Positions 8,705-61,041 of a stretch of 64,000 bases of DNA are shown one piece after another. Below the pieces are notes generated by a model. That model was not told where the DNA came from. It ran no database searches and saw nothing but the letters and a program-made list of their open reading frames with translations. Numbering within the stretch: position 1 is the first letter of the stretch; each line of letters opens with the position of its first letter. The DNA is from Minisyncoccota bacterium (GTDB lineage: Bacteria; Patescibacteriota; Minisyncoccia; Phycocordibacterales; VMEP01): NCBI GenBank assembly GCA_041659085.1, contig JBAZYZ010000001.1, positions 4,884 to 68,883 on the forward strand. The letters are read 5' to 3'. A program made the position numbers and the translations under genes.

Positions 8705-12378
<3,674 letters not shown>

Positions 12379-12473: not shown

Positions 12474-12549
12474 GGGTCTGTAGCTCAGTTGGGAGAGCGC
12501 TACGATGGCATCGTAGAGGTCACCGGTTCGATCCCGGTCGGGTCCACCA
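12474..12549 (+). tRNA. tRNA-Ala (anticodon GGC), CCA encoded
   Basis: Manual cloverleaf: acceptor gggtctg/cgggtcc with G3:U70; anticodon loop atGGCat; T-loop ttcgatc. Confidence 0.8.
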
Positions 12550-12593
12550 AAACATTTTTCGCCTCAAAGTTCGTCCCCGGCGAAAGTCGGCGA

Positions 12594-12666
12594 GTGGCCA
12601 TAGCTCAGCCTGGCAGAGCATCGGGCTCATACCCCAATGTCCTTGGTTCAAATCCAAGTGGCTACT
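12594..12666 (+). tRNA. tRNA-Met (anticodon CAU; elongator Met or Ile-lysidine type)
   Basis: acceptor gtggcca/tggctac; anticodon loop ctCATac; T-arm cttgg-ttcaaat-ccaag; one C-A mismatch in the anticodon stem; no encoded CCA. Confidence 0.65.
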
Positions 12667-12698
12667 CGGTTTAGATTTTTAAAAAAGTCGGGGTGTAG

Positions 12699-12772
12699 CT
12701 CAGCCCGGTAGAGCGTCTCCTCGGGGAGGAGAATGTCGGGGGTTCGAATCCCTTCACCGCGACCCGCCCGAA
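12699..12772 (+). tRNA. tRNA-Pro (anticodon GGG)
   Basis: C1-G72 pair typical of tRNA-Pro; anticodon stem tctcc/ggaga with loop tcGGGga; T-loop ttcgaat; one acceptor mismatch at 3:70. Confidence 0.6.
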
Positions 12773-19341: not shown

Positions 19342-20748
19342 ATGCTGAAAACACGGATATTCGCTCTCGCCATACTCTTGGCCGGTCTCTCTATTGGCTA
19401 CTTTTTATACGCTTCCGAGGCGAAGCTTCATGGCGCGTCAAAGCCGTGGGGGAGTTCGGCTCTCTCCGGGTTTTCGTTTAAGCTCGGACTTGACCTTTCG
19501 GGCGGCACACATCTCATTTATCGCGCCGATGTTTCCAAAGTTGCCGGGAGCGAAGTTAAAAATGCGATGGACGCGCTGCGCGATGTCATAGAACGCCGTG
19601 TGAATCTTTTTGGAGTGTCCGAACCACTGGTCCAGTTGGAATCGGGCGGTTTTGCCGGCAATGAGCAAAGGCTCATAATTCAGCTTCCCGGCGTTACTGA
19701 TGTTAATCAGGCGGTGACCATGATTGGGCAGACGCCTCTTCTTGAATTCAAGACCGAACGTCCGAATGGCGCAGAAAAAGATTCTATAATAAAAGCCATT
19801 GAGGCGTATCAGAAAGCCAAAAAAGACGGGAAAGAACCCGCCTTTGACCCTCTTCTTCTCCAGGATCCAGGCTACATCTCCACTGAACTGACCGGACGTT
19901 TTCTTGAGAAGGCCACTCTTGATTTTGACCAGCAGACCGGAGAACCGACGGTGGGATTGCAGTTCAACAGCGAAGGCACGAAACTTTTTGCCGATATAAC
20001 CAAATCAAACGTCGGTAAGACAGTGGCGATTTATTTGGATAATGCCCCAATCTCGTCTCCCGTAGTCCGCGAGGAAATCGCGAGTGGCAAGGCGCAGATT
20101 TCCGGCAACTTCACGCCACAGGAAGCAAAGACTCTGGTTGGGCGTTTGAATTCCGGGGCCCTTCCCGTGCCGATTGAACTTATTTCCACTCAAACTATCG
20201 GCGCTCCGCTTGGAGAGAAGGCGTTAAACGGGGGAGTGAAAGCAGGCTTGCTGGGACTCTTGGCCGTCGCAATCTTCCTGATTGCCTGGTACCGTTTGCC
20301 GGGACTTGTTGCTGTAATAGCGCTTGGTGTCTATGTGGTCATTATGCTCGCCGTGTTTAAGCTTATCCCGATAACGCTTACCGCCGCCGGTATTGCCGGA
20401 TTTATTTTGTCGGTGGGTATGGCGGTTGACGCCAACATATTGGTTGCCGAACGGACCAAGGAAGAGCTTCGCAATGGACGCGACGTTATCGACGCCATAA
20501 AAGAAGGATTTTCGCGCGCCTGGTCTTCTATTCGCGACTCAAATATTTCAAGCATGATAACCGGCGTTATGTTGTTTTGGTTCGGGACGAGCCTTATACA
20601 AGGATTTGCGCTCACTTTCCTTCTTGGCGTCCTTATATCAATGTTCTCCGCCATTACCGTAACCCGCACATTCCTGTTTTCGCTCGGAGTTACGAAGCGT
20701 ACCAAACTTGCTTCTTTCTTATTCAGCAGCGGATTTAATCTGAAATAA
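19342..20748 (+). CDS. secD: protein translocase subunit SecD
   Basis: 'LGLDLSGGTHLIYRAD' periplasmic-domain motif; C-terminal 6-TM block; followed by secF. Confidence 0.88.
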   Translation: MLKTRIFALAILLAGLSIGYFLYASEAKLHGASKPWGSSALSGFSFKLGLDLSGGTHLIYRADVSKVAGSEVKNAMDALRDVIERRVNLFGVSEPLVQLESGGFAGNEQRLIIQLPGVTDVNQAVTMIGQTPLLEFKTERPNGAEKDSIIKAIEAYQKAKKDGKEPAFDPLLLQDPGYISTELTGRFLEKATLDFDQQTGEPTVGLQFNSEGTKLFADITKSNVGKTVAIYLDNAPISSPVVREEIASGKAQISGNFTPQEAKTLVGRLNSGALPVPIELISTQTIGAPLGEKALNGGVKAGLLGLLAVAIFLIAWYRLPGLVAVIALGVYVVIMLAVFKLIPITLTAAGIAGFILSVGMAVDANILVAERTKEELRNGRDVIDAIKEGFSRAWSSIRDSNISSMITGVMLFWFGTSLIQGFALTFLLGVLISMFSAITVTRTFLFSLGVTKRTKLASFLFSSGFNLK

Positions 20749-20752
20749 ATTT

Positions 20753-21643
20753 ATGTTTATCGTAAAGTATAAAAACTTGTTTTTCGCCATCTCGGCCGTT
20801 CTCGTGGCCGCCGCTTTGGGCGCGATGGTTGTAAAAGGGTTCAATGTCGGCATTGATTTTAAAGGTGGTTCAATGATTGAGGTTAGCTACACCGATGCCC
20901 GGCCTGATATTGCGGCGCTAGAGGAATCAATCAAGGACAAATTCCCCGGTTCCCATATGCAGCTTGCGGGGGAGAAAGACCTCATTGTCCGTACCAAAGA
21001 CCTGAGCGATAAAGAACACACGGACATAATTGAAGAACTCTCGCTTAGCGGCGCAAACCATCTTACGGAAAAGCAGTTTAGTTCGGTTGGACCGACCATA
21101 GGCAAAGAACTCCGTTCCCGCGCCTGGGCTGCAATGATTGCGGTCTTGCTCGGCATTGTTCTCTTCATCGCTTTTGCCTTCAGGAAGGTTTCTTTACCCG
21201 TTTCTTCCTGGAAGTACGGTTTGATTACTTTGGTGTCTTTGGTGCACGACGTAATCATTCCCGCCGGTATTTTCGCTTACCTCGGCAAAGAAGTTAATTC
21301 TCTTTTTGTGGTGGCGCTGCTTTCTATACTCGGCATTTCCGTGCACGATAAAATTGTCGTGTTTGACCGCATCCGCGAGAACTTGAAGCTTCATACGGCC
21401 AAAGAGTTTAGTGATACTGTAGGGAAGAGTTTGGAGCAAACTTTCGCCCGTTCTATAAACACCTCTCTCACCATCCTTATCGTCTTAGGCGCGCTCTGGT
21501 ACCTCGGTCCCGATTCAACCCGCGATTTCTCAATGCTCCTGTTTGCCGGTGTCGCCATCGGTACCTACTCGTCAATTTTCTTTGCCAGTCCATTGGTTGT
21601 TCTTGCCGAGAAACTACAGATAAAGAATAGAAGTAAAAAATAG
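20753..21643 (+). CDS. secF: protein translocase subunit SecF
   Basis: 'GIDFKGGSMIEVSY' motif; 6 TM helices. Confidence 0.88.
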   Translation: MFIVKYKNLFFAISAVLVAAALGAMVVKGFNVGIDFKGGSMIEVSYTDARPDIAALEESIKDKFPGSHMQLAGEKDLIVRTKDLSDKEHTDIIEELSLSGANHLTEKQFSSVGPTIGKELRSRAWAAMIAVLLGIVLFIAFAFRKVSLPVSSWKYGLITLVSLVHDVIIPAGIFAYLGKEVNSLFVVALLSILGISVHDKIVVFDRIRENLKLHTAKEFSDTVGKSLEQTFARSINTSLTILIVLGALWYLGPDSTRDFSMLLFAGVAIGTYSSIFFASPLVVLAEKLQIKNRSKK

Positions 21644-22123: not shown

Positions 22124-23650
<1,527 letters not shown>

Positions 23651-23884
23651 ATTGAAAATGTTCGAGATTTATTTCGAATTCTTGGCCGGTGTTTATGCTT
23701 CACAAGGGCATAAATGGGTAATTATTGCCAAAACCCTAATTCGCAATACATTGCTCTGGATGTACCAGAGCAGAAAACCTAGCGTGGGAACGCAAAGGTT
23801 GGACGGAACAAAAGAAAGAATATTAACCCGCCTAAATTTTTGCGAACAAAAATTTTGGTGGGTAAGCACTAACTATAAGTCATC

Positions 23885-31896: not shown

Positions 31897-32139
31897 ATGT
31901 CAAAAAAGCGAACGATTATAATCTTGGGTTTATTGGTGGCGCTTTTGCCGTTTTCCGGCATTCCAAGGGGAATACGCGAATCACTTTCGGCTTTAGCGGG
32001 TCTTGTTATAGCGGTGCTGGCTTTTCTTTTGAAGCGTAAGATTGAGCGGATGGCTATGGGGGAGAGCAATGACACTTTTTCACAAAACAGCGTTTACTCG
32101 GTTCCTCAGGAGGGAGGAGAAAAAGAAGCAAAAAGCTAA
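31897..32139 (+). CDS. small membrane protein (two TM helices), hypothetical
   Basis: preceded by an extended -10 (tgctataat) 6 nt upstream of the ATG: leaderless candidate. Confidence 0.5.
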   Translation: MSKKRTIIILGLLVALLPFSGIPRGIRESLSALAGLVIAVLAFLLKRKIERMAMGESNDTFSQNSVYSVPQEGGEKEAKS

Positions 32140-32163: not shown

Positions 32164-33438
32164 ATGAAAAGAATTTTTAAGGGGAAACATTTTTTTGTCG
32201 GAGCGTCCCTCGGCGTTTTTGCCGTGGCTGGTTATTTGGGACTGTCATTTATACCAGGCGAAACATACAGTTCGGAAGGCGGGTTGGAGGCGCTTGCGAC
32301 TAGCTCTGCAGACAAAATTGTTGAAGTAAAAAACACGGATGGTAAAAGCGCTAATTTCCAGGCAGTTGCGCATATGGAGACACCAGAACCGCTCAAGGCG
32401 ATTTATATGACCGCCTGTGTCGCAGGTACTCCGTCCTGGCGCGAACGTATGGCAAAATTGGTTGAGACGACGGAATTAAACTCAATCATTATTGATATCA
32501 AAGATTATAGCGGCGCCATCTCAATTGAAACAAATAACCCTATCTTTAAGGATAATGTCGGCAAAGGTTGCCGGGTAAAAGATATGCGGGAATTCGTGTC
32601 GTTTCTGCACGACAAAGGCATATATGTAATAGGGCGTATTACCGTTTTTCAGGACCCATATTACACAAAAGCTCACCCGGAACTGGCGGTGAAAAAAATG
32701 TCCAACAAGGAAGTTGTATGGAAAGACCGCAAAGGACTTTCTTTTATAGATGTCGGAGCCAAGCCTTATTGGGATTATATCGTAGAGCTTGGCAAAGAAT
32801 CTTACGATATGGGTTTTGATGAACTGAATTTTGACTACATCCGTTTCCCGTCCGATGGCGATATGAGGGACATCTACTTCTCTTACGGCGTGGGAAAAAC
32901 AAAAGCTGAGGCGCTGGAAGAGTTCTTTATATACCTTAATGACCAACTGAAGCCAATTGGCGCTGTTTTGTCCGCCGATTTGTTTGGCATGACAGCGACC
33001 AATAATGACGACCTCAATATCGGGCAGGTTCTTGAACGCGCTCTCCCGCATTTTGATTACGTGTCGCCGATGGTTTATCCGTCGCATTACCCGACCGGTT
33101 TCAACGGCTGGAAAAACGTTAATGCCCATCCGTATGACATTGTTAAGTTCTCGCTTGCTCGCGCGGTGGAGAGGACCGAGGCAACCACGACGGCGGTTAA
33201 CTTTTTGGGAGCGGCAATCATATCCTCGGGAACTACCACGAAGAGTGTTATATACGCGAAGGAGCCTTACCCTAGGGGGAAAATCCGCCCGTGGCTGCAG
33301 GATTTCAGCTATCCCGTAACATATACGCCGGAGATGGTGAAAGCGCAGATACAAGCGACATATGATGTAGGCCTCACTAGTTGGATGCTCTGGGACCCGG
33401 CCAATAAATATACTCCCAGTATTTTGCTGAAGGAGTAA
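32164..33438 (+). CDS. putative glycoside-hydrolase-like TIM-barrel protein (DUF4015/YngK-like), N-terminally membrane-anchored
   Basis: N-terminal TM helix; '...NSIIIDIKDYSG...GIYVIGRITVFQDP...GFDELNFDYIRFP' resembles GH-like (GHL) families. Confidence 0.5.
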   Translation: MKRIFKGKHFFVGASLGVFAVAGYLGLSFIPGETYSSEGGLEALATSSADKIVEVKNTDGKSANFQAVAHMETPEPLKAIYMTACVAGTPSWRERMAKLVETTELNSIIIDIKDYSGAISIETNNPIFKDNVGKGCRVKDMREFVSFLHDKGIYVIGRITVFQDPYYTKAHPELAVKKMSNKEVVWKDRKGLSFIDVGAKPYWDYIVELGKESYDMGFDELNFDYIRFPSDGDMRDIYFSYGVGKTKAEALEEFFIYLNDQLKPIGAVLSADLFGMTATNNDDLNIGQVLERALPHFDYVSPMVYPSHYPTGFNGWKNVNAHPYDIVKFSLARAVERTEATTTAVNFLGAAIISSGTTTKSVIYAKEPYPRGKIRPWLQDFSYPVTYTPEMVKAQIQATYDVGLTSWMLWDPANKYTPSILLKE

Positions 33439-33584
33439 CTTTTTGGTTTATCCCCAAAAACTATTGACCGCCATTACCCGTGTGGTAACATTTAAATAGT
33501 CGCTGCTTCACGATATTAAGCGGCTAAACGCTCTTCCCCTCGGCATTTTTGTGAGGGACAAACTCAATAGAAGAAGGAGACTAT

Positions 33585-33986
33585 ATGAAACGCAACAAAC
33601 TGTTGTCCCTCGCGTTGGTAGCTCTGGCAATCAGCGTCGGCGCCTCCAGCGTATTCGCAGCCTCGAATCCGACCGTCGGCGGCGTCGATCAAGCGACCAC
33701 CACCAAGACTTTCACCAACCCGGCGCCCGTGGCTGCGGGTACCAACACCGGCGCGCGCGAGGCCGTGGCCAGTCCGACCGTCAACGTGAAGCCGGCAGCA
33801 GCGACCATCAGCGCGCAGAAAGCGACCACCGCCAGCGCCAAGGACCAGATCGCCGCCAAGGCCGTCTCGCTCGATTCGGCAACCGCCACCGCCACCGCTG
33901 CGGTCAATGCCGGCCTCGTTCTCGCCGTCGCGCATACGGTCGACGCCTCCGCCAACCCGGCAGCAATGGTACCGCTGCTGAACTGA
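33585..33986 (+). CDS. secreted Ala/Thr-rich low-complexity protein encoded in a GC-rich (~64%) segment
   Basis: AAGGAG SD 6 nt before the ATG; signal peptide MKRNKLLSLALVALAISVGASSVFA|A; GC3-rich codons (gcc/acc/ggc/gtc) contrast with flanking ~40% GC. Confidence 0.65.
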   Translation: MKRNKLLSLALVALAISVGASSVFAASNPTVGGVDQATTTKTFTNPAPVAAGTNTGAREAVASPTVNVKPAAATISAQKATTASAKDQIAAKAVSLDSATATATAAVNAGLVLAVAHTVDASANPAAMVPLLN

Positions 33987-34014
33987 GCTTTCTGTTCTAG
34001 GGTCTTACGGCCCA

Positions 34015-34038
34015 ACCCCCCTCTTCGGAGGGGATTTT
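34015..34038 (+). terminator. rho-independent terminator
   Basis: cccccctcttcggaggggattttt. Confidence 0.7.
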
Positions 34039-34145
34039 TGTTTTGTGCTAACAATATTTTCATATATACTTTTAAAATAGACGCGAGGAGCTAGAAATCA
34101 GAAGTTGGGTAATCTAACTTCCGATTTCTAACCTCTAATTTCCAA

Positions 34146-36032
34146 ATGTCAGACCAGGATAAAATCACATATATCGGGGAGACCGATTTTCGCAATAAAA
34201 AAATAAAATTTGGCATCAAGGCCAAAGATCGGACGCGCCATGTTTACATCATCGGTAAGACGGGCATGGGTAAGTCCACGCTTCTTGAAAATATGGCGGT
34301 GCAGGATATTGTGAACGGCGAAGGCATGGCTTTCATAGACCCTCACGGTGGCACAGCGGAAAAGCTTCTGGACTATATCCCCGAGAGCCGCGTCAAAGAT
34401 GTTATTTATTTTGCCCCGTTTGACGCGGATTACCCGGTTTCTTTCAATGTGATGGAAGACGTCGGCGCCGATAAGCGGCATCTGGTGGCAAACGGACTCA
34501 TGAACGCTTTCAAAAAAATCTGGGTGGATGCCTGGAGCGCCCGCATGGAATATATTTTAAACAATGTCCTCTTGGCTCTTCTTGAATACCCCGATTCCAC
34601 GATTCTAGGCGTCAACCGCATGCTCTCCGACAAGGATTACCGCAATCTGGTGGTGGCAAATGTTACCGATGCTTCGGTAAAGTCTTTCTGGGTGGATGAG
34701 TTCGCCAAATATGGCGACAAATATATGCAGGAAGCCGGCGCGGCGATTCAGAATAAAATAGGACAGTTTATCTCCAACCCGCTTATAAGAAACATAATCG
34801 GCCAGCCTAAATCTTCCTTTGATATAAGGAAGATAATGGATGAGAAAAAAATTCTCATCATGAACCTTTCCAAAGGAAGGATGGGTATTGAGAACTCTAC
34901 GCTCTTGGGCAACATGCTGGTAACCAAAATTTACCTCGGGGCAATGTCGCGCGCGGACGCGTCCGCTTCTCTGTTGCAAAAACTCCCAAATTTTTACTTC
35001 TATGTTGACGAATTTCAATCTTTTGCCAACGAATCGTTTGCCGATATTTTGTCTGAGGCGCGCAAATATAAGTTGTCGCTTACCATAGCGCACCAGTATG
35101 TGAATCAGATGCCGGAAGAGGTAAGAGACGCGGTTTTCGGCAACGTGGGTTCTATGGTTACTTTTCGCATCGGTCCGGAGGATGCCGAATTATTCGAAAA
35201 AGAATTTGCCCCTGAATTCATAGCGGATGATTTGGTTAATCTGGGGTTTTCTCAGATATATCTCCGTCTTATGATAGACGGGATAGGTTCCAAGCCGTTT
35301 TCCGCCACGACATTGCCTCCGATCGCGCAGGAGAGAGAGTCCCATAAAGACGAGGTCATAGATGGGACCAGAAAAATTTACGCGACTCCGCGAACGAAGG
35401 TTGAAGGATTCATAAACAAATGGTATGAGTCGGTTGCGCCGCCCAAAGCGCCAAGGGAAAGGAAAGATAAAGACGCCCCGGAGCAACCCGCTTCTCCGCG
35501 CGAATTCAAAAACGATGTGGCCGGATCCGGGTCAAGGCCGGCTCCGGATAAAAAACCGGTCGACCACATTATCCGGGAAGAAATTAAAGTCGGACATACG
35601 ACACCAGTTGCTCCTCGGGAAATCCCGCATGAGGCCCAAAAATGGCCCACGATGAATGATAAAGCGGGTGTGAGTAATGTCGATAGAACGCCCAAAAACA
35701 GGCCGTTTATAGCTAAAATAGAGCCCAAGCCGATAACACCTGTTTCTTTGAGTCAGCTTAAGCCTGAGGCTGTAAAAGGGCAGTCAAGGAACTCAATGGC
35801 CTTAAAGGAGGCGTTGGCTGCCGCTCTCAAAGAAAAAGTTGCCGTCCCGTTTTCATCCGAACCAAAAAAAGAAGTTCCAACAAGCAGTGTTCCCCAAAAT
35901 ATACCTGAGGCTACGGATGGCGGACTAAGACAGGAAGAAAAAAAGTGGGAAGAGATGAAAAAACATCACGATACCCCAAAAGCTCCAAAGGAAATTCCGG
36001 AAGATGTTTTGAGAAAAATATTAAACGAATAA
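34146..36032 (+). CDS. TraG/VirD4/HerA-superfamily P-loop ATPase (type IV coupling-protein-like, no N-terminal TM segment) with ~230-aa disordered K/P/E-rich C-terminal tail
   Basis: Walker A 'IIGKTGMGKSTLL'; 'AFIDPHGG'; Walker B 'FYFYVDEFQSF'; 'SLTIAHQYVNQMPEEVRDAVFGNVGSMVTFRIG' resembling T4CP motifs; low-complexity tail. Confidence 0.65.
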   Translation: MSDQDKITYIGETDFRNKKIKFGIKAKDRTRHVYIIGKTGMGKSTLLENMAVQDIVNGEGMAFIDPHGGTAEKLLDYIPESRVKDVIYFAPFDADYPVSFNVMEDVGADKRHLVANGLMNAFKKIWVDAWSARMEYILNNVLLALLEYPDSTILGVNRMLSDKDYRNLVVANVTDASVKSFWVDEFAKYGDKYMQEAGAAIQNKIGQFISNPLIRNIIGQPKSSFDIRKIMDEKKILIMNLSKGRMGIENSTLLGNMLVTKIYLGAMSRADASASLLQKLPNFYFYVDEFQSFANESFADILSEARKYKLSLTIAHQYVNQMPEEVRDAVFGNVGSMVTFRIGPEDAELFEKEFAPEFIADDLVNLGFSQIYLRLMIDGIGSKPFSATTLPPIAQERESHKDEVIDGTRKIYATPRTKVEGFINKWYESVAPPKAPRERKDKDAPEQPASPREFKNDVAGSGSRPAPDKKPVDHIIREEIKVGHTTPVAPREIPHEAQKWPTMNDKAGVSNVDRTPKNRPFIAKIEPKPITPVSLSQLKPEAVKGQSRNSMALKEALAAALKEKVAVPFSSEPKKEVPTSSVPQNIPEATDGGLRQEEKKWEEMKKHHDTPKAPKEIPEDVLRKILNE

Positions 36033-44461: not shown

Positions 44462-45304
44462 ATGGATAAAAATAAAAAAATTGGTTTTATCGGTCAGGGA
44501 TATATAGGCAAAAACTACGCCGACGATTTTGAGAAACGCGGCTATTCGGTTGTGCGCTATGCTTTAGAAGAACCTCATATTTCAAACAAAGAGAAGATCG
44601 CGGAATGTGACATTGTGTTTATCGCCGTGCCGACCCCGACAACTCCGGAAGGATTTGACGACCATATCGTTGACGAGGCCATTAATCTTGTTGGCGCTGG
44701 CAAAATTGCCGTGATTAAGTCCACGGTTCTTCCGGGCACTACGGAGAAACTTCAAAGGGCGCATAGCGGTGTCTTGGTATTAAATTCGCCGGAATTTCTT
44801 TCGGAAGCGACAGCGGCGCATGATGCGGCTCATCCGGCGCAAAATATTATCGGCATTCCCGAGGACACGGCCGGGCATCGCGAAGCCGCGGAGCTTGTCT
44901 TGTCTATTTTGCCGGAAACACAGAGTTCGCTCGTGTGTAAAAGCGCCGAATCCGAGCTTTTCAAGTACGCGCATAACATGAGCGGCTATGTGCAGATTGT
45001 GCTGTTTAATATTATTTATGATTTGGCGCAAAAATTAGGCTGTGACTGGGAGCCTATTCAGAAAGCGATTGAAGCGGACCCGCTTATTTCCAACCGATAC
45101 GCGCGGCCGATTCACAAAAGCGGAAGGGGCGCAGGAGGTCACTGTTTTATAAAAGATTTTGAAGCTTTTTCGAGCCTTTATCACAGCAAGATTGCTGACC
45201 CGCTCGGGGACAAGGTAATGGCCGCTTTGAGGGAGAAAAATATTGATTTGCTGAAAAAGAGCGGCAAAGATTTGGATTTATTGAAAGGAGTTTATGGCAA
45301 TTAG
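44462..45304 (+). CDS. UDP-glucose/GDP-mannose dehydrogenase family protein (short form, 280 aa)
   Basis: N-terminal 'KIGFIGQGYIGKNYA' Rossmann motif; 'GRGAGGHCFIKDFEAF' resembling the UGDH catalytic Cys motif GFGGSCFPKD. Confidence 0.55.
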   Translation: MDKNKKIGFIGQGYIGKNYADDFEKRGYSVVRYALEEPHISNKEKIAECDIVFIAVPTPTTPEGFDDHIVDEAINLVGAGKIAVIKSTVLPGTTEKLQRAHSGVLVLNSPEFLSEATAAHDAAHPAQNIIGIPEDTAGHREAAELVLSILPETQSSLVCKSAESELFKYAHNMSGYVQIVLFNIIYDLAQKLGCDWEPIQKAIEADPLISNRYARPIHKSGRGAGGHCFIKDFEAFSSLYHSKIADPLGDKVMAALREKNIDLLKKSGKDLDLLKGVYGN

Positions 45305-52750: not shown

Positions 52751-54727
52751 ATGGTTTTTATTGCTGTAAAACTATTTCTGTTTTTATTTGCAGTCATTTC
52801 TTTTGGCTATTTGGCGAGTTTTCTTTTTTTGAAAGAAAGAAAAATTTCCACCCTTATTCCGTTCTCTGTCCTTATCGGCGTAAGCGGATATGTATTTTTC
52901 GTCAACACATTTTCTTATTTTGTCGGAGTTAAGGAGGTTGTGTGGCTGGTATTACTACTATTTGTACTGTTTATTTTTTATCAAATTTACGCAAAGGGGA
53001 TAGGGGGATTTCGTCCGGAAATTGATTTAACAGGGAAAGAGTCTAAAATTCTTTTTAGTCTGGCAATAATAATTTCAATAACATCGGGGATTGTCGCCTT
53101 AAGAGCCCTTGACCCGGACGGATACGTTCATTTGACATTTTCCTCAACTATAAGTGAAGGGAATTTCCCTCTTATGAATCCGGTAGATCCAGACACGCTT
53201 ATTCCGTATCACTACGCGCCGGATTTGCTTTCTGCCGCGATGCATAGAGTAACCGGCGTCTCGCTATTGTGGGGTTACAATATTCAGACTTTCTTCTTTA
53301 GCGGCCTGACTTTTTTACTCGCTTTTATTTTGGCTTTTTATGTGACCGGAAGATTTTACACTTCAATAATTGCGTCTTTGTTTTTCTTCTTTGGAGCGGG
53401 GGCTCTTTTTTTGAATATTACACACGGATTTTCTCCCCTCTATCACAAGTATATTTTGGGTGAAAACGCAGTTGGCGCATGGAAATTTGTGGCCGAGATG
53501 CTTTGGCCTAAGATAAATAATTTTTATACTTATGCAATTAGAAATTACACAACGGTTATGGGCACGCCGATAATGCTTTCTGTCATATACTTATATTTTA
53601 AATTCATTGATGAAGGCAAAACTCAAATCAAAAAAATAATTATTGCAGGACTCCTTCTCGGTTTTTTGGCATTAAGCCTGGAAACAAATTTTGTTATACT
53701 GTCGTTCGTTTTAGGGCTATCCCTGCTCTATAAAATCTATTTGTTGTCTTGCAATAAGAACGATGATTTGAGAGAAAGGTATCTCAATGGCGTAAAAGTA
53801 ATAGTCCTTGTTTTGTTCATAGGTTCGGCAGTTGCGTATATGCAGGGAGGGGTTATAACCGCTTCTTTGAAGAGCGATAAAGGTGTCGTTGCCGGCCAAA
53901 GCTCCGGAGTTGGTGGGCGGCAGAGTTTTGTCTTGAATGGCAACCCTTCAGAACTTATAATTTCGCGTCAGGGAGAAGACAAGGTTCCAATATTTAGTTT
54001 GACCTTTTTAAAAGAATTCGGCCTTACTCTTATTTTGTTTCCGTTGGCAGTTTTTGTTTTCAGGAGAGATAAAAAAATATTATTTTTATCGTCAGTCGGC
54101 CTGACAGCTTTTTTGATTCCAATTTTCGTTATCTACGCTTCTTGGCCAGGGGAATTGGCCAGGGTATTTGTTGTATCTACTACAATTTTTTCTTTTGTTT
54201 CCGCTCTTTTTATCTGTCTTCTCTACGGTAAGTATAAAGAAAACATAAAAATTAAATCTATTTTGATTACCATCTCTTTGATGGTAATATTTGGTGGACT
54301 TTCTTTCCAATTAGTTTCTATGGTTACCCCGTACAGTAATTTTGGCAAGATTAGAGTTCCTTTTGCGGCGAGTCTTCCCGCGCTTTCTGATACTGACAGC
54401 AGGGTTTATGAATGGGTACGCGCCAATACAGTCAATTCATCCAGGTTTTTCCCCTACAATCAAAGATTAATAATTGAGACGGGCAGAATGTCTCCAAGCG
54501 ATATCGTTGGATTTGTCCCGAAGTATAAAATTCCGATTTACAAAGATATTGCTGATAATTGCGGGACAGATTCAATAAAGAAACTGGGAATAAATTATTT
54601 TGTCTTGTCTCCGGGCGGTTTTTCCAAGGAAAGTTTTCTAGGCAAATGTTCCTCACTTAATTCCGGTTTAGTTTTTAGCGTTAAGGAGGGCGGGGATTAT
54701 CGGGAGATTTACCAGATAAAGAATTAA
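52751..54727 (+). CDS. large polytopic membrane protein (~13 TM plus extracytoplasmic C-terminal domain); candidate GT-C-type glycosyltransferase/polymerase
   Basis: 658 aa; many hydrophobic helices; soluble C-terminal ~130 aa; no firm family motif identified. Confidence 0.6.
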   Translation: MVFIAVKLFLFLFAVISFGYLASFLFLKERKISTLIPFSVLIGVSGYVFFVNTFSYFVGVKEVVWLVLLLFVLFIFYQIYAKGIGGFRPEIDLTGKESKILFSLAIIISITSGIVALRALDPDGYVHLTFSSTISEGNFPLMNPVDPDTLIPYHYAPDLLSAAMHRVTGVSLLWGYNIQTFFFSGLTFLLAFILAFYVTGRFYTSIIASLFFFFGAGALFLNITHGFSPLYHKYILGENAVGAWKFVAEMLWPKINNFYTYAIRNYTTVMGTPIMLSVIYLYFKFIDEGKTQIKKIIIAGLLLGFLALSLETNFVILSFVLGLSLLYKIYLLSCNKNDDLRERYLNGVKVIVLVLFIGSAVAYMQGGVITASLKSDKGVVAGQSSGVGGRQSFVLNGNPSELIISRQGEDKVPIFSLTFLKEFGLTLILFPLAVFVFRRDKKILFLSSVGLTAFLIPIFVIYASWPGELARVFVVSTTIFSFVSALFICLLYGKYKENIKIKSILITISLMVIFGGLSFQLVSMVTPYSNFGKIRVPFAASLPALSDTDSRVYEWVRANTVNSSRFFPYNQRLIIETGRMSPSDIVGFVPKYKIPIYKDIADNCGTDSIKKLGINYFVLSPGGFSKESFLGKCSSLNSGLVFSVKEGGDYREIYQIKN

Positions 54728-59313: not shown

Positions 59314-61041
59314 ATGGAGAAAATTACCAAAATAATTCAGGAATACCGCTTTGTTTTGCTTCTAGCCGTTTTTTGTGGCGCTGTCTATGTGGCACCCCAT
59401 TTGTTTTTTAAGATTACCCTTGGGAACTCCTTCCACGGCATTGAACTTACACCAAGGGATGCGGAGACACATTACCTGTCAATGCTGAATGAGGTCAAAC
59501 AGGGATACCTTACCCATAGCAGCACATATTTGTATGAATATAAGGATAGTAAAGTGTCCCCGATTGAATATTCCGAGACATTTTACGGGACGATAATAAA
59601 ACTTTTCAATCTTGGAGCTCCTGGATTTTATTTATTTTGCGAGTTCTTTTTTCCGGTAGTTATATTTTTACTTTGGTATTATTTTTCCTTGCTTGTTACC
59701 AAAAACAAAAGGAGCGCTATTTTGTCAGCTCTTTTTTTAATGTTCGGTACCTACATTTTAAGCAACGTAAGCATCATAAAACAATTTGATATTTTATTTT
59801 GGAAGACGGCAAACATACCTCTCCTTGCCTACGGCAGAATTATAAATCCATTACTTACATTCCCATTCTTTTTTGCCGGTCTAATCTTCGCTTATAAGCT
59901 GTTCTCTGAGAACACAAAAAAAATGGCGGTCTTTTCCGGCATAGCTCTGGGAATAATGTTTTATGTCTATTTTTACTTTTGGACATATTTTTTAGCCCTG
60001 AGTTTTTTAATGCTGGTGTTCGGAGTGTCGAAAAAAGAGTGGCAATTGGTGAAAAATATTTCTCTAAGTATTTCTATATCTCTGCTCATTGGTTCATATT
60101 TTATTGTCAGTATGATAAAGACGGTCGTTAGTTCAGTTGGGGTTCAATCCGGAGGCTCATTATCTCCATATGTTTTTGCCTTAAGCCATAATCCGTCCCT
60201 GCCGTCCTTGGTGGTTTTGGGAGTGGCGTTATTTTCTTTTTTTATTTATTTGAGGAGGAGAAAGGGGATACCATTGGAGAGAGGGGATGCATTCATCTTT
60301 CTCCTGTTATCTACTGCCGTAGTTGTTGTTAATCAGCAGATAATAACTGGACGGTCTGTTGAACCGGGACACTTTCATTGGTATGCGAATGTGCCGGTTT
60401 TCTTTTTAACTGTAAGTTATATCATTGTCGACTTGTTGGGAAAAATAAGAATAAGATATCTTGGCAAAACGTTATTTATAATTTTATGTTTATATCTAAT
60501 CACGTTTGGCATAGGTACACAGGTTTCCGGATATAAACAGAGGTTTGATAATTTTTCTTATATTCAGAAATACGGAGCTGTCTTCGACTGGTTCAATAGG
60601 AATACGGAAAAAGAATCGGTTATTTTTGGCGGAAACGGATTTTCGGATCTCACTCCTGCATATACCCAAAATAATGTCTATTTTGCAGCTTACGGGGCTT
60701 ACTACCCGTCTAATCCGCTCGAACGCAGAATTCATACCGCATACATTTATTATTTCTTGGATAATAAAAAGGAGGACATTTTGCAAAAGATTTATCCATC
60801 CTTAACTTCAAATGGCTGTGTCAGCGCCGGATGTGTTGATTCTGACATTTTTGCAAAAACTATGGCTAATTATGGAGAATTTTTAAAGACGCCATTTTAT
60901 GAAAATTTGAAAAAATATAGGGTAGACTATATGGTCTGGGACAAAAACACGAACCCTTCATGGAATTTGGATAAGTTTAGTTTCTTAAAACCAGTCTATA
61001 ATTATGATAATGTTCTGGTTTATAAAATTTTAAACAAATGA
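59314..61041 (+). CDS. large polytopic membrane protein with extracytoplasmic C-terminal domain; candidate GT-C glycosyltransferase/polymerase
   Basis: 575 aa; ~11 TM helices then ~170-aa soluble domain; no firm family motif. Confidence 0.55.
   Translation: MEKITKIIQEYRFVLLLAVFCGAVYVAPHLFFKITLGNSFHGIELTPRDAETHYLSMLNEVKQGYLTHSSTYLYEYKDSKVSPIEYSETFYGTIIKLFNLGAPGFYLFCEFFFPVVIFLLWYYFSLLVTKNKRSAILSALFLMFGTYILSNVSIIKQFDILFWKTANIPLLAYGRIINPLLTFPFFFAGLIFAYKLFSENTKKMAVFSGIALGIMFYVYFYFWTYFLALSFLMLVFGVSKKEWQLVKNISLSISISLLIGSYFIVSMIKTVVSSVGVQSGGSLSPYVFALSHNPSLPSLVVLGVALFSFFIYLRRRKGIPLERGDAFIFLLLSTAVVVVNQQIITGRSVEPGHFHWYANVPVFFLTVSYIIVDLLGKIRIRYLGKTLFIILCLYLITFGIGTQVSGYKQRFDNFSYIQKYGAVFDWFNRNTEKESVIFGGNGFSDLTPAYTQNNVYFAAYGAYYPSNPLERRIHTAYIYYFLDNKKEDILQKIYPSLTSNGCVSAGCVDSDIFAKTMANYGEFLKTPFYENLKKYRVDYMVWDKNTNPSWNLDKFSFLKPVYNYDNVLVYKILNK

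Follow-up and report, generated by a model that had tools for sequence, protein, structure and literature searches.

How does a strongly GC-rich gene, led by a textbook Shine-Dalgarno (SD) motif, come to lie in DNA that is much poorer in GC and in a genome whose 16S rRNA cannot pair with that motif in the usual way? The question concerns an ORF for a protein of 133 amino acids, which lies near the middle of the 64-kb stretch of DNA that we analysed (we call the whole stretch the window). The contig belongs to the metagenome-assembled genome of an ultra-small bacterium, a Candidatus Paceibacterota (CPR). An earlier, sequence-only reading of this DNA had proposed that the gene was either a recent acquisition from a high-GC donor or a compositionally constrained surface glycoprotein. 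Our preferred answer, to which we give a probability of about one half, is that it is a monocistronic orphan gene, probably acquired horizontally into the junction between a DUF4015 gene and an ATPase gene, and that it encodes a small protein that is secreted by the Sec pathway. We hold our confidence at that level because no donor or relative of the gene was found and because similar GC-rich, SD-led genes occur in related loci. The coordinates of the main features are collected in Table 1.

Table 1. Features of the 133-aa gene and its neighbours in the window, and GC-rich genes at related loci (locus:positions).
Feature	Position	Strand	GC	GC3	Details
80-aa two-TM membrane protein gene	31897-32139				
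DUF4015 glycosyl-hydrolase-like gene	32164-33438				upstream of 133-aa gene; Pfam
Promoter-like site	33464-33491	+			-35 TTGACC, 16-nt spacer, TG-extended -10 TAACAT; consensus scan
Shine-Dalgarno AAGGAG	33574-33579	+			5 nt 5' of ATG 33585
133-aa ORF, including stop codon	33585-33986	+	0.664	0.80	
Sec-type signal peptide (predicted)	33585-33659	+			residues 1-25; read by eye from translation
Mature protein	33660-33983	+			108 aa, ~10.3 kDa, pI ~8.4
Intrinsic terminator	34018-34043	+			stem-loop 34018-34033 CCCCTC-TTCG-GAGGGG, then T-run ATTTTTGTTT
TrwB/VirD4/DUF87-like (T4SS-coupling-protein-like) ATPase gene	34146-36032				downstream of 133-aa gene; Pfam
GC-rich family member	L144:339-1421		0.60	0.80	AGGAG or AAGGAG SD; strong terminator
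GC-rich family member	L158:276-1364		0.54	0.64	strong terminator
GC-rich family member	L162:246-1391		0.54	0.57	AGGAG or AAGGAG SD; strong terminator
Other GC-outlier gene	L004:8228-8473				0.11-0.22 above locus GC (range of the four)
Other GC-outlier gene	L042:7085-7951				as above
Other GC-outlier gene	L073:991-1761				as above
Other GC-outlier gene	L152:88-348				as above

The contrast in composition is large. The window as a whole has a GC content of 44.5%, and its long ORFs (n=48) have a GC content of 0.44±0.04 and a GC3 of 0.47±0.06, with a maximum GC3 of 0.60. Across the entire 64 kb, GC content exceeds 0.60 over 300 nt at just one place, which is the island at our gene (it peaks at 0.697, as compared to a mean of 0.446 and a standard deviation of 0.051). 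GC3 stays high from one end of the gene to the other (0.71-0.90 in segments of 20 codons), and the flanks of the island are host-like, with 0.425 GC on the 5' side and 0.396 on the 3' side, so the island is the ORF itself. Within the ORF, GC content by codon position is 0.61/0.58/0.80, and there is a three-base periodicity (chi-square 16.5, p=2.6e-4). The sequence-only reading had described a gene of about 64% GC with GC3-rich codons, and this agrees with the ORF; the wider segment 33440-34040 has a GC content of 0.596. It had also described the neighbouring DNA as about 40% GC, and this is too low: the surroundings are actually about 44-47% GC.

How much of this excess is due to the amino acids? 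We kept the amino-acid sequence and redrew its codons from the window's codon usage (5000 simulations). The resampled genes had a GC3 of 0.517±0.042 and never more than 0.66, and their total GC was expected to be 0.564, versus 0.664 as observed. The richness of the protein in Ala, Thr, Pro, and Gly accounts for about half of the GC excess, and codon choice accounts for the other half. So a composition that is driven purely by amino acids does not hold, while the third-position excess on which the sequence-only reading depended is large (0.80 versus 0.52 expected).

The codon choice is also distinctive. Codons that end in T are nearly absent: Val is encoded by GTC in 8 of 15 cases and by GTT just once, and Leu is encoded by CTC or CTG in 8 of 10 cases and never by CTT. 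Codons that end in G are up alongside those that end in C (GCG 10, CCG 6, TCG 3, CTG 4). In the native ribosomal protein genes L10 and L7/L12 (4923-5854), GC3 is just 0.50-0.52, and GTT and CTT/TTG are favoured. We rejected native translational selection as the cause of the codon bias, as the choices for Val and Leu are the opposite of those in L10 and L7/L12.

The gene seems to have its own expression signals. Both the textbook AAGGAG and the GC-rich terminator of the sequence-only reading are there, the former at a 5-nt spacing and the latter with a T-run behind its stem-loop. The putative promoter matches 9 of the 12 consensus positions and has a TG ahead of the -10; it is a match to the consensus only, and the leader from it would be about 90 nt. 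Nearly all of the genes in the window are on the plus strand, as is this one.

What is odd about the SD is the ribosome that would have to read it. The host's 16S rRNA gene is on the same contig (22115-23652), and its 3' end (23640-23652) is GAUUAAUUCAAAU, which lacks the CCUCC anti-SD. The consensus for the tail of bacterial 16S rRNA is GAUCACCUCCUUU. Because the host 16S has no CCUCC, the AAGGAG of the 133-aa gene cannot pair with it canonically. The anti-SD motif is reported to be missing in about half of the Parcubacteria (PMC9297842). The genes in the window mostly do without SD motifs, as the sequence-only reading had said of the neighbours: 45 of 47 gene starts lack an SD match of at least 6 nt. 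The 133-aa gene has the sole well-spaced one, as the other AAGGAG (of the gene at 45294) is 3 nt from its ATG and lies within the preceding gene. Given a host without an anti-SD and with nearly all of its genes SD-less, the SD of the 133-aa gene looks foreign.

We made some other observations about translation in this genome. The AUUAAUU of the 16S tail is complementary to the 4-mers TAAT and AATT, and these are 4.6-5x enriched within the 12 nt before start codons, while other AT-only 4-mers are 2.2-2.8x enriched there. This may be a hint of alternative pairing, or it may merely reflect AT-rich leaders. The rRNA genes are unlinked or rearranged, with 23S and 5S about 10 kb upstream of 16S. The match to 23S rRNA (8716-12368) covers 3,653 nt while the model has 2,925 nt, so the gene contains roughly 700 nt of insertions; we saw no ORF resembling a homing endonuclease inside it. 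Between the 23S and 5S genes, at 12474-12765, are tRNA-Ala(GGC), tRNA-Met, and tRNA-Pro(GGG). GNN-anticodon tRNAs for Ala and Pro are an unusual retention for a very small genome.

We searched widely for relatives of the 133-aa protein, which is annotated at NCBI as "hypothetical protein WC835_00205". A word-index search against clusters that represent about 15 billion proteins found no homologue, and an exhaustive phmmer search of 1.84 billion representatives returned the protein itself and spurious matches only. Scans of metagenome and viral loci were negative, as were blastn against plasmids and tblastn against phages, and the sense protein had no match among PDB sequences. No family in Pfam, NCBIfam, or PHROGs matched in any of several frames; the single NCBIfam match, to EF0750_LPXTG (E=0.086), spans the signal peptide only. 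We discarded three weak matches to eukaryotic thrombospondin type-1 repeats, in which "TRTCTNPAP" is aligned repeatedly with "TKTFTNPAP", as repeat-summed noise. We also discarded two plasmid matches from blastn, which extend over 9-15% of the query and reflect chance similarity of GC-rich sequence. So equally biased homologues in related low-GC genomes, which the sequence-only reading would have counted against itself, did not turn up, and neither did homologues of any other composition. Nor did we find a homologue from a donor lineage with a conflicting phylogeny, which is a criterion for horizontal acquisition.

The neighbourhood is more familiar than the gene. The block of membrane protein, DUF4015, and ATPase genes is conserved across many Paceibacterota, and we found more than 540 relatives of the ATPase in each collection that we scanned (genomes and metagenomes). 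Among the 80 related genome loci that we kept, 49 have the DUF4015 gene directly before the ATPase gene, with gaps that range from 22 nt to 2.6 kb, and the 133-aa gene was not found in the junction of any of these 49. The mid-sized gaps that we inspected (24 loci, 240-1,260 nt) contain unrelated small ORFs, and at one locus, L031, a type IV pilin gene lies directly 5' of the ATPase. It appears from these comparisons that the slot between the DUF4015 and ATPase genes is variable and that the 133-aa gene is its lineage-specific occupant. Downstream, beyond the 133-aa gene and alongside the ATPase, is a gene for a surface protein with LTD and PKD domains; no other T4SS components were seen near the block. 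The ATPase itself carries a long disordered tail that is rich in Lys, Pro, and Glu.

Could the ends of an insertion be located? The closest relatives, from both the genome and the metagenome collections, have just 70-75% amino-acid identity in the ATPase, and scanning the metagenomes a second time brought up none nearer. With proteins that are only about 70% identical, the intergenic DNA cannot be aligned with that of the closest relatives (L001 and L002), so the ends of any insertion cannot be mapped. By Pfam analysis of the neighbouring genes, there is no mobility gene (integrase or transposase) next to the 133-aa gene. An 8-nt direct repeat, ATTTTTGT, at 33545-33552 and 34034-34041, flanks a 481-bp segment that contains the ORF along with its SD and its terminator stem, and each copy adjoins CCCCTC...GAGGG motifs. 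This is the only flanking repeat that we saw. It could be a target-site duplication, but a match of this length is at the level of chance (about 0.5 expected), and we set that idea aside. We also rejected the idea that the downstream hairpin is the attC site of an integron cassette: the motifs that resemble core sites are misordered and adjacent to each other, and an integrase is absent. Another inverted repeat, of 15 bp with a 9-nt loop (TAGAAATCAGAAGTT / AACTTCCGATTTCTA, 34092-34130), lies just 5' of the start of the ATPase gene. It has no T-run, is unique in the window, and is not kept in the closest relatives.

If the gene was acquired horizontally, then its source would be an unsampled organism that uses SD motifs and has a genome of roughly 60-65% GC. 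(From the general relationship between GC3 and genome composition, a GC3 of 0.80 suggests a donor in this range.) The gene would be transcribed from its own sigma-70-like promoter and transcription would end at its own terminator (Table 1). Translation would begin at the ATG that follows the AAGGAG, and the AAGGAG would be a relic of the donor, as the host 16S has no CCUCC with which to pair. The pre-protein would then pass through the Sec system, for which the window has SecD and SecF genes (19342-21643), and would lose its signal peptide by cleavage after VFA25. The 108-aa product would either leave the cell or stay at its surface through non-covalent contacts, and it would have a disordered N-terminal half, rich in Thr, Ala, Pro, and Asn, and a C-terminal Ala-rich helix. 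We infer the horizontal origin, the expression, the secretion, and the surface location of this protein; as to its role, we would guess that it serves an episymbiont as an accessory at the surface or in adhesion.

The prediction of secretion is based on the N terminus, with its MKRNK n-region, its h-region (LLSLALVALAISVGASS, a 17-residue hydrophobic core), and a putative signal peptidase I site at VFA↓A. These are the features expected of a Sec-exported protein that signal peptidase I cleaves: positive charge in the n-region, a hydrophobic stretch 10-20 residues long in the h-region, and small side chains at positions -3 and -1. The Kyte-Doolittle mean over 19 residues peaks at 2.1 in the N terminus, and the AF2 model has a helix across residues 3-26. 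The signal peptide of the sequence-only reading therefore stands, as a Sec-type signal peptide by eye, but its AXA site does not in the literal sense, as the motif is V-F-A↓A. The mature protein is 28% Ala, 15% Thr, and 11% Val and lacks Cys, Trp, and Tyr. A disordered stretch (residues 27-84) and an Ala-rich helix (residues 85-123) are predicted; this single-sequence AF2 model is of low confidence, with a mean pLDDT of 56 and values of 68-75 over helix residues 91-120. The Kyte-Doolittle mean of the mature part does not exceed 1.3, and there is one weakly hydrophobic C-terminal stretch.

How well is a foreign origin supported? The proposal of a recent acquisition from a high-GC donor survives in part. 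The GC3 excess, the mismatch between the SD and the host's anti-SD, and the absence of the gene from relatives all point towards it, while no donor was found and the argument is one from composition. Had the transfer been truly recent, then one might expect a relative to be detectable. Also, the GC-rich stretch coincides almost exactly with the ORF, and the promoter region is host-like, which is tidier than a random foreign fragment.

Perhaps, then, the gene is native. It could be a fast-evolving or de novo lineage-specific gene whose GC-rich codons, SD-like leader, and strong terminator are kept by selection, perhaps because they make expression very high or the mRNA stable. We consider this less likely. 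One argument for it comes from related Paceibacterota, in which we found a family of GC-rich genes (L144, L158, and L162) that has no match in Pfam. These genes encode proteins of 360-381 amino acids that are 37-44% identical, and they always lie just 5' of the conserved block (the genes for the small membrane protein, DUF4015, and the ATPase). Their flanks are at 0.34-0.44 GC, and each copy is 0.15-0.24 above the GC content of its own genome, with a GC3 of 0.57-0.80. Because the GC excess persists in genes that have diverged so deeply, a GC3 excess alone, in this clade, proves neither recency nor foreign origin. Like our gene, they combine an ORF-bounded excess of GC and GC3 with a strong terminator and a location by the same block, and at L144 and L162 an AGGAG or AAGGAG precedes the ATG by about 6-8 nt. 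In contrast to our gene, they encode much longer proteins without a signal peptide, and they lie 5' of the membrane protein gene rather than between the DUF4015 and ATPase genes. The proteins do not seem to be kin, as BLASTP gives E=2.6 and there is no sequence similarity.

The pattern extends to some of the other GC outliers at related loci. Those at L004, L042, and L073 are led by canonical SD motifs and followed by GC-rich terminators; that at L152 has a GAGGAG further upstream and an uncertain start codon. So the combination of SD, GC-rich ORF, and strong terminator, which favours a native gene, is also found at L144, L162, L004, L042, and L073. Under a strict definition, 4 of 11 GC outliers (including the 133-aa gene) have the SD pattern, as compared to a baseline of about 6% (p≈0.004, post hoc), and two more have SD cores of 5-6 nt. 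These recurring genes could reflect repeated import, or their composition could be maintained natively in the clade.

A native gene would also fit with the exact coincidence of island and ORF between host-like flanks and with the failure to find a donor, and native L7/L12 shares the preference for GCC and GGC. But the choice of Val and Leu codons is contrary to that in the native ribosomal protein genes, and the rise of G-ending codons along with C-ending codons fits a mutational GC bias better than selection driven by tRNAs. Furthermore, the SD cannot act canonically without an anti-SD, and the gene is absent from all of the relatives that we searched.

We think it improbable that a foreign GC-rich fragment was inserted in which the 133-aa ORF arose by chance or has no function. 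Stop codons are scarce in GC-rich DNA, and this could explain why four ORFs of 123-149 amino acids each, including the 133-aa ORF, overlap in the island. The sequence-only reading had viewed the stacking of ORFs in all frames as a side-effect of GC richness, and the ORFs that it listed are all present: 33551-34000 on the plus strand, and 33564-33935 and 33689-34063 on the minus strand. Two of the three plus-strand frames have at most one stop within the island. The lack of homologues for a low-complexity protein and the low-confidence AF2 model would also fit with an inert fragment. On the other hand, the ORF spans the island exactly, and it has an AAGGAG 5 nt before its start, a signal peptide with n-, h-, and c-regions, and a terminator on the same strand. 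Its in-frame GC3 is also far above its GC1 and GC2. A single other frame has the same GC-rich third positions, namely that on the minus strand at 33692-33988, within the ORF 33689-34063. As that ORF would start inside the terminator and ends within the island, we prefer the plus frame. The antisense frame also had no homologues in a search of protein databases, and so we rejected the idea that a donor gene was being read in another frame.

A more exotic idea is that these genes form a recurrent class in Paceibacterota that lack the anti-SD, and that their signals match those of a GC-richer partner cell that does use SD motifs. They might be expressed there after a transfer like that of T-DNA, or they might be translated by a special route. 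Members of the proposed class would stand as single genes clustered around the DUF4015-ATPase block, and each would combine a strong terminator and a canonical SD with codons that are rich in GC. Expression in a partner cell is compatible with what we see, as the SD has no pairing partner in the host 16S, as several GC outliers in relatives are also led by SD motifs, and as the neighbouring gene encodes an ATPase that resembles a DNA translocase. Nevertheless, we view this as a long shot. The recurrence of GC-rich, SD-led genes in lineages without an anti-SD is the part of our results that most deserves a systematic survey.

We give very little credence to an error in assembly or binning (a chimera or a high-GC contaminant), even though this is a metagenome-assembled genome with an abrupt switch in composition. 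There are syntenic Paceibacterota genes on both flanks, all on one contig, and a chimera would switch composition on one side rather than inlay 400 bp that coincide with an ORF. Also, an independent Logan assembly of SRR18595301 contains the identical gene with the same neighbours across a 6.4-kb region, and the two bases that differ from our contig are about 2.3 kb away from the gene, so we rejected this explanation. Finally, GC-rich islands in low-GC genomes are often RNA genes, but that this is a structured non-coding RNA or a regulatory element, rather than a protein gene, is scarcely credible: the Rfam scan gave no match at the gathering threshold of any family (the single match at E ≤ 1, to rimP-leader, is at 33981-34073, 3' of the ORF, with E=0.097 and 25.6 bits versus a gathering threshold of 47), the predicted fold is no better than for shuffled sequences (MFE z-score +0.95), and the three-base periodicity is strong.

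What of the idea that the protein is a glycoprotein, or an S-layer-associated substrate for nearby glycosylation machinery? There is a cluster of genes at 37.6-64 kb that looks like glycan biosynthesis: by Pfam, it encodes GT4, GT2, and GT9 glycosyltransferases, methyltransferases, and sugar-nucleotide enzymes (epimerases or dehydratases). The cluster is about 3.6 kb from the 133-aa gene, with two unrelated genes in between, and proximity is the only link. Pfam found no protein O-glycosyltransferase of the PMT/GT39 or PglL/Wzy_C type in the cluster. Similarly, the 133-aa protein has no LPXTG motif, no SLH domain, and no lipobox (there is no cysteine anywhere), and Pfam gave nothing for it. This part of the sequence-only reading is not supported by these results, and glycosylation of the protein is pure conjecture. 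Two genes of the cluster, at 52751-54727 and 59314-61041, encode proteins of 658 and 575 amino acids for which Pfam gave nothing, even at E ≤ 0.1.

If the 133-aa gene was indeed acquired from a GC-rich donor, then it is a clean case in which a streamlined CPR bacterium has gained one gene from outside, and that gene encodes a secreted protein. It would also be a gene that keeps translation signals that its host cannot read in the usual way, so it could be used, as an experiment of nature, to see what SD-independent ribosomes do with mRNAs that have an SD. And it would be a candidate for a surface factor in the contact between an episymbiont and its host. Its wider value is limited: this is a lone gene from a single genome, and it comes with neither a family nor a donor nor a functional handle.

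How does this gene compare with known systems? We considered pilins, as the next gene encodes an ATPase that resembles a T4SS coupling protein and as a type IV pilin occupies the same slot at L031. Like the pilins of the VirB2/TrbC/TraA type and the type IV pilins, the 133-aa product would be a small exported protein encoded directly 5' of a secretion-type ATPase. But VirB2/TrbC/TraA pilins have a long leader and, in a mature part of about 70 amino acids, two hydrophobic helices, and the mature 133-aa product, given its low hydropathy, has no such pair; nor does it match TrbC/VirB2 or TraA in Pfam, and we rejected a conjugative pilin. Type IV pilins have the G↓FTLIE prepilin motif, which is absent from our protein, as is any Pfam match. 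There is also a likeness to the secreted proteins of high-GC Actinobacteria that are rich in Ala, Thr, and Pro and are often O-glycosylated, such as the mycobacterial Apa. These share with our protein a Sec signal peptide, a low-complexity region that is rich in Ala, Thr, and Pro and is probably disordered, and high-GC codons. They differ in that no homology was detected and in that neither a protein O-mannosyltransferase nor any other protein glycosyltransferase was recognised in the window.

As for the origin of the gene, horizontal transfer into Patescibacteria has been documented, with up to 13% of the genome length affected, and transfers of single genes are common (PMC12455944). Those transfers were identified by matches between donor and recipient, while ours is suggested by composition, the mismatch between SD and anti-SD, and synteny alone. 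Still, the acquisition of a compositionally alien gene is a known and ordinary type of event, and the 133-aa gene is a homologue-less case. It has in common with the single genes and islets that Patescibacteria are known to have acquired (PMC12455944) that it is an isolated gene, with deviant GC content and codons, that was inserted into a streamlined CPR genome with a conserved gene on either side.
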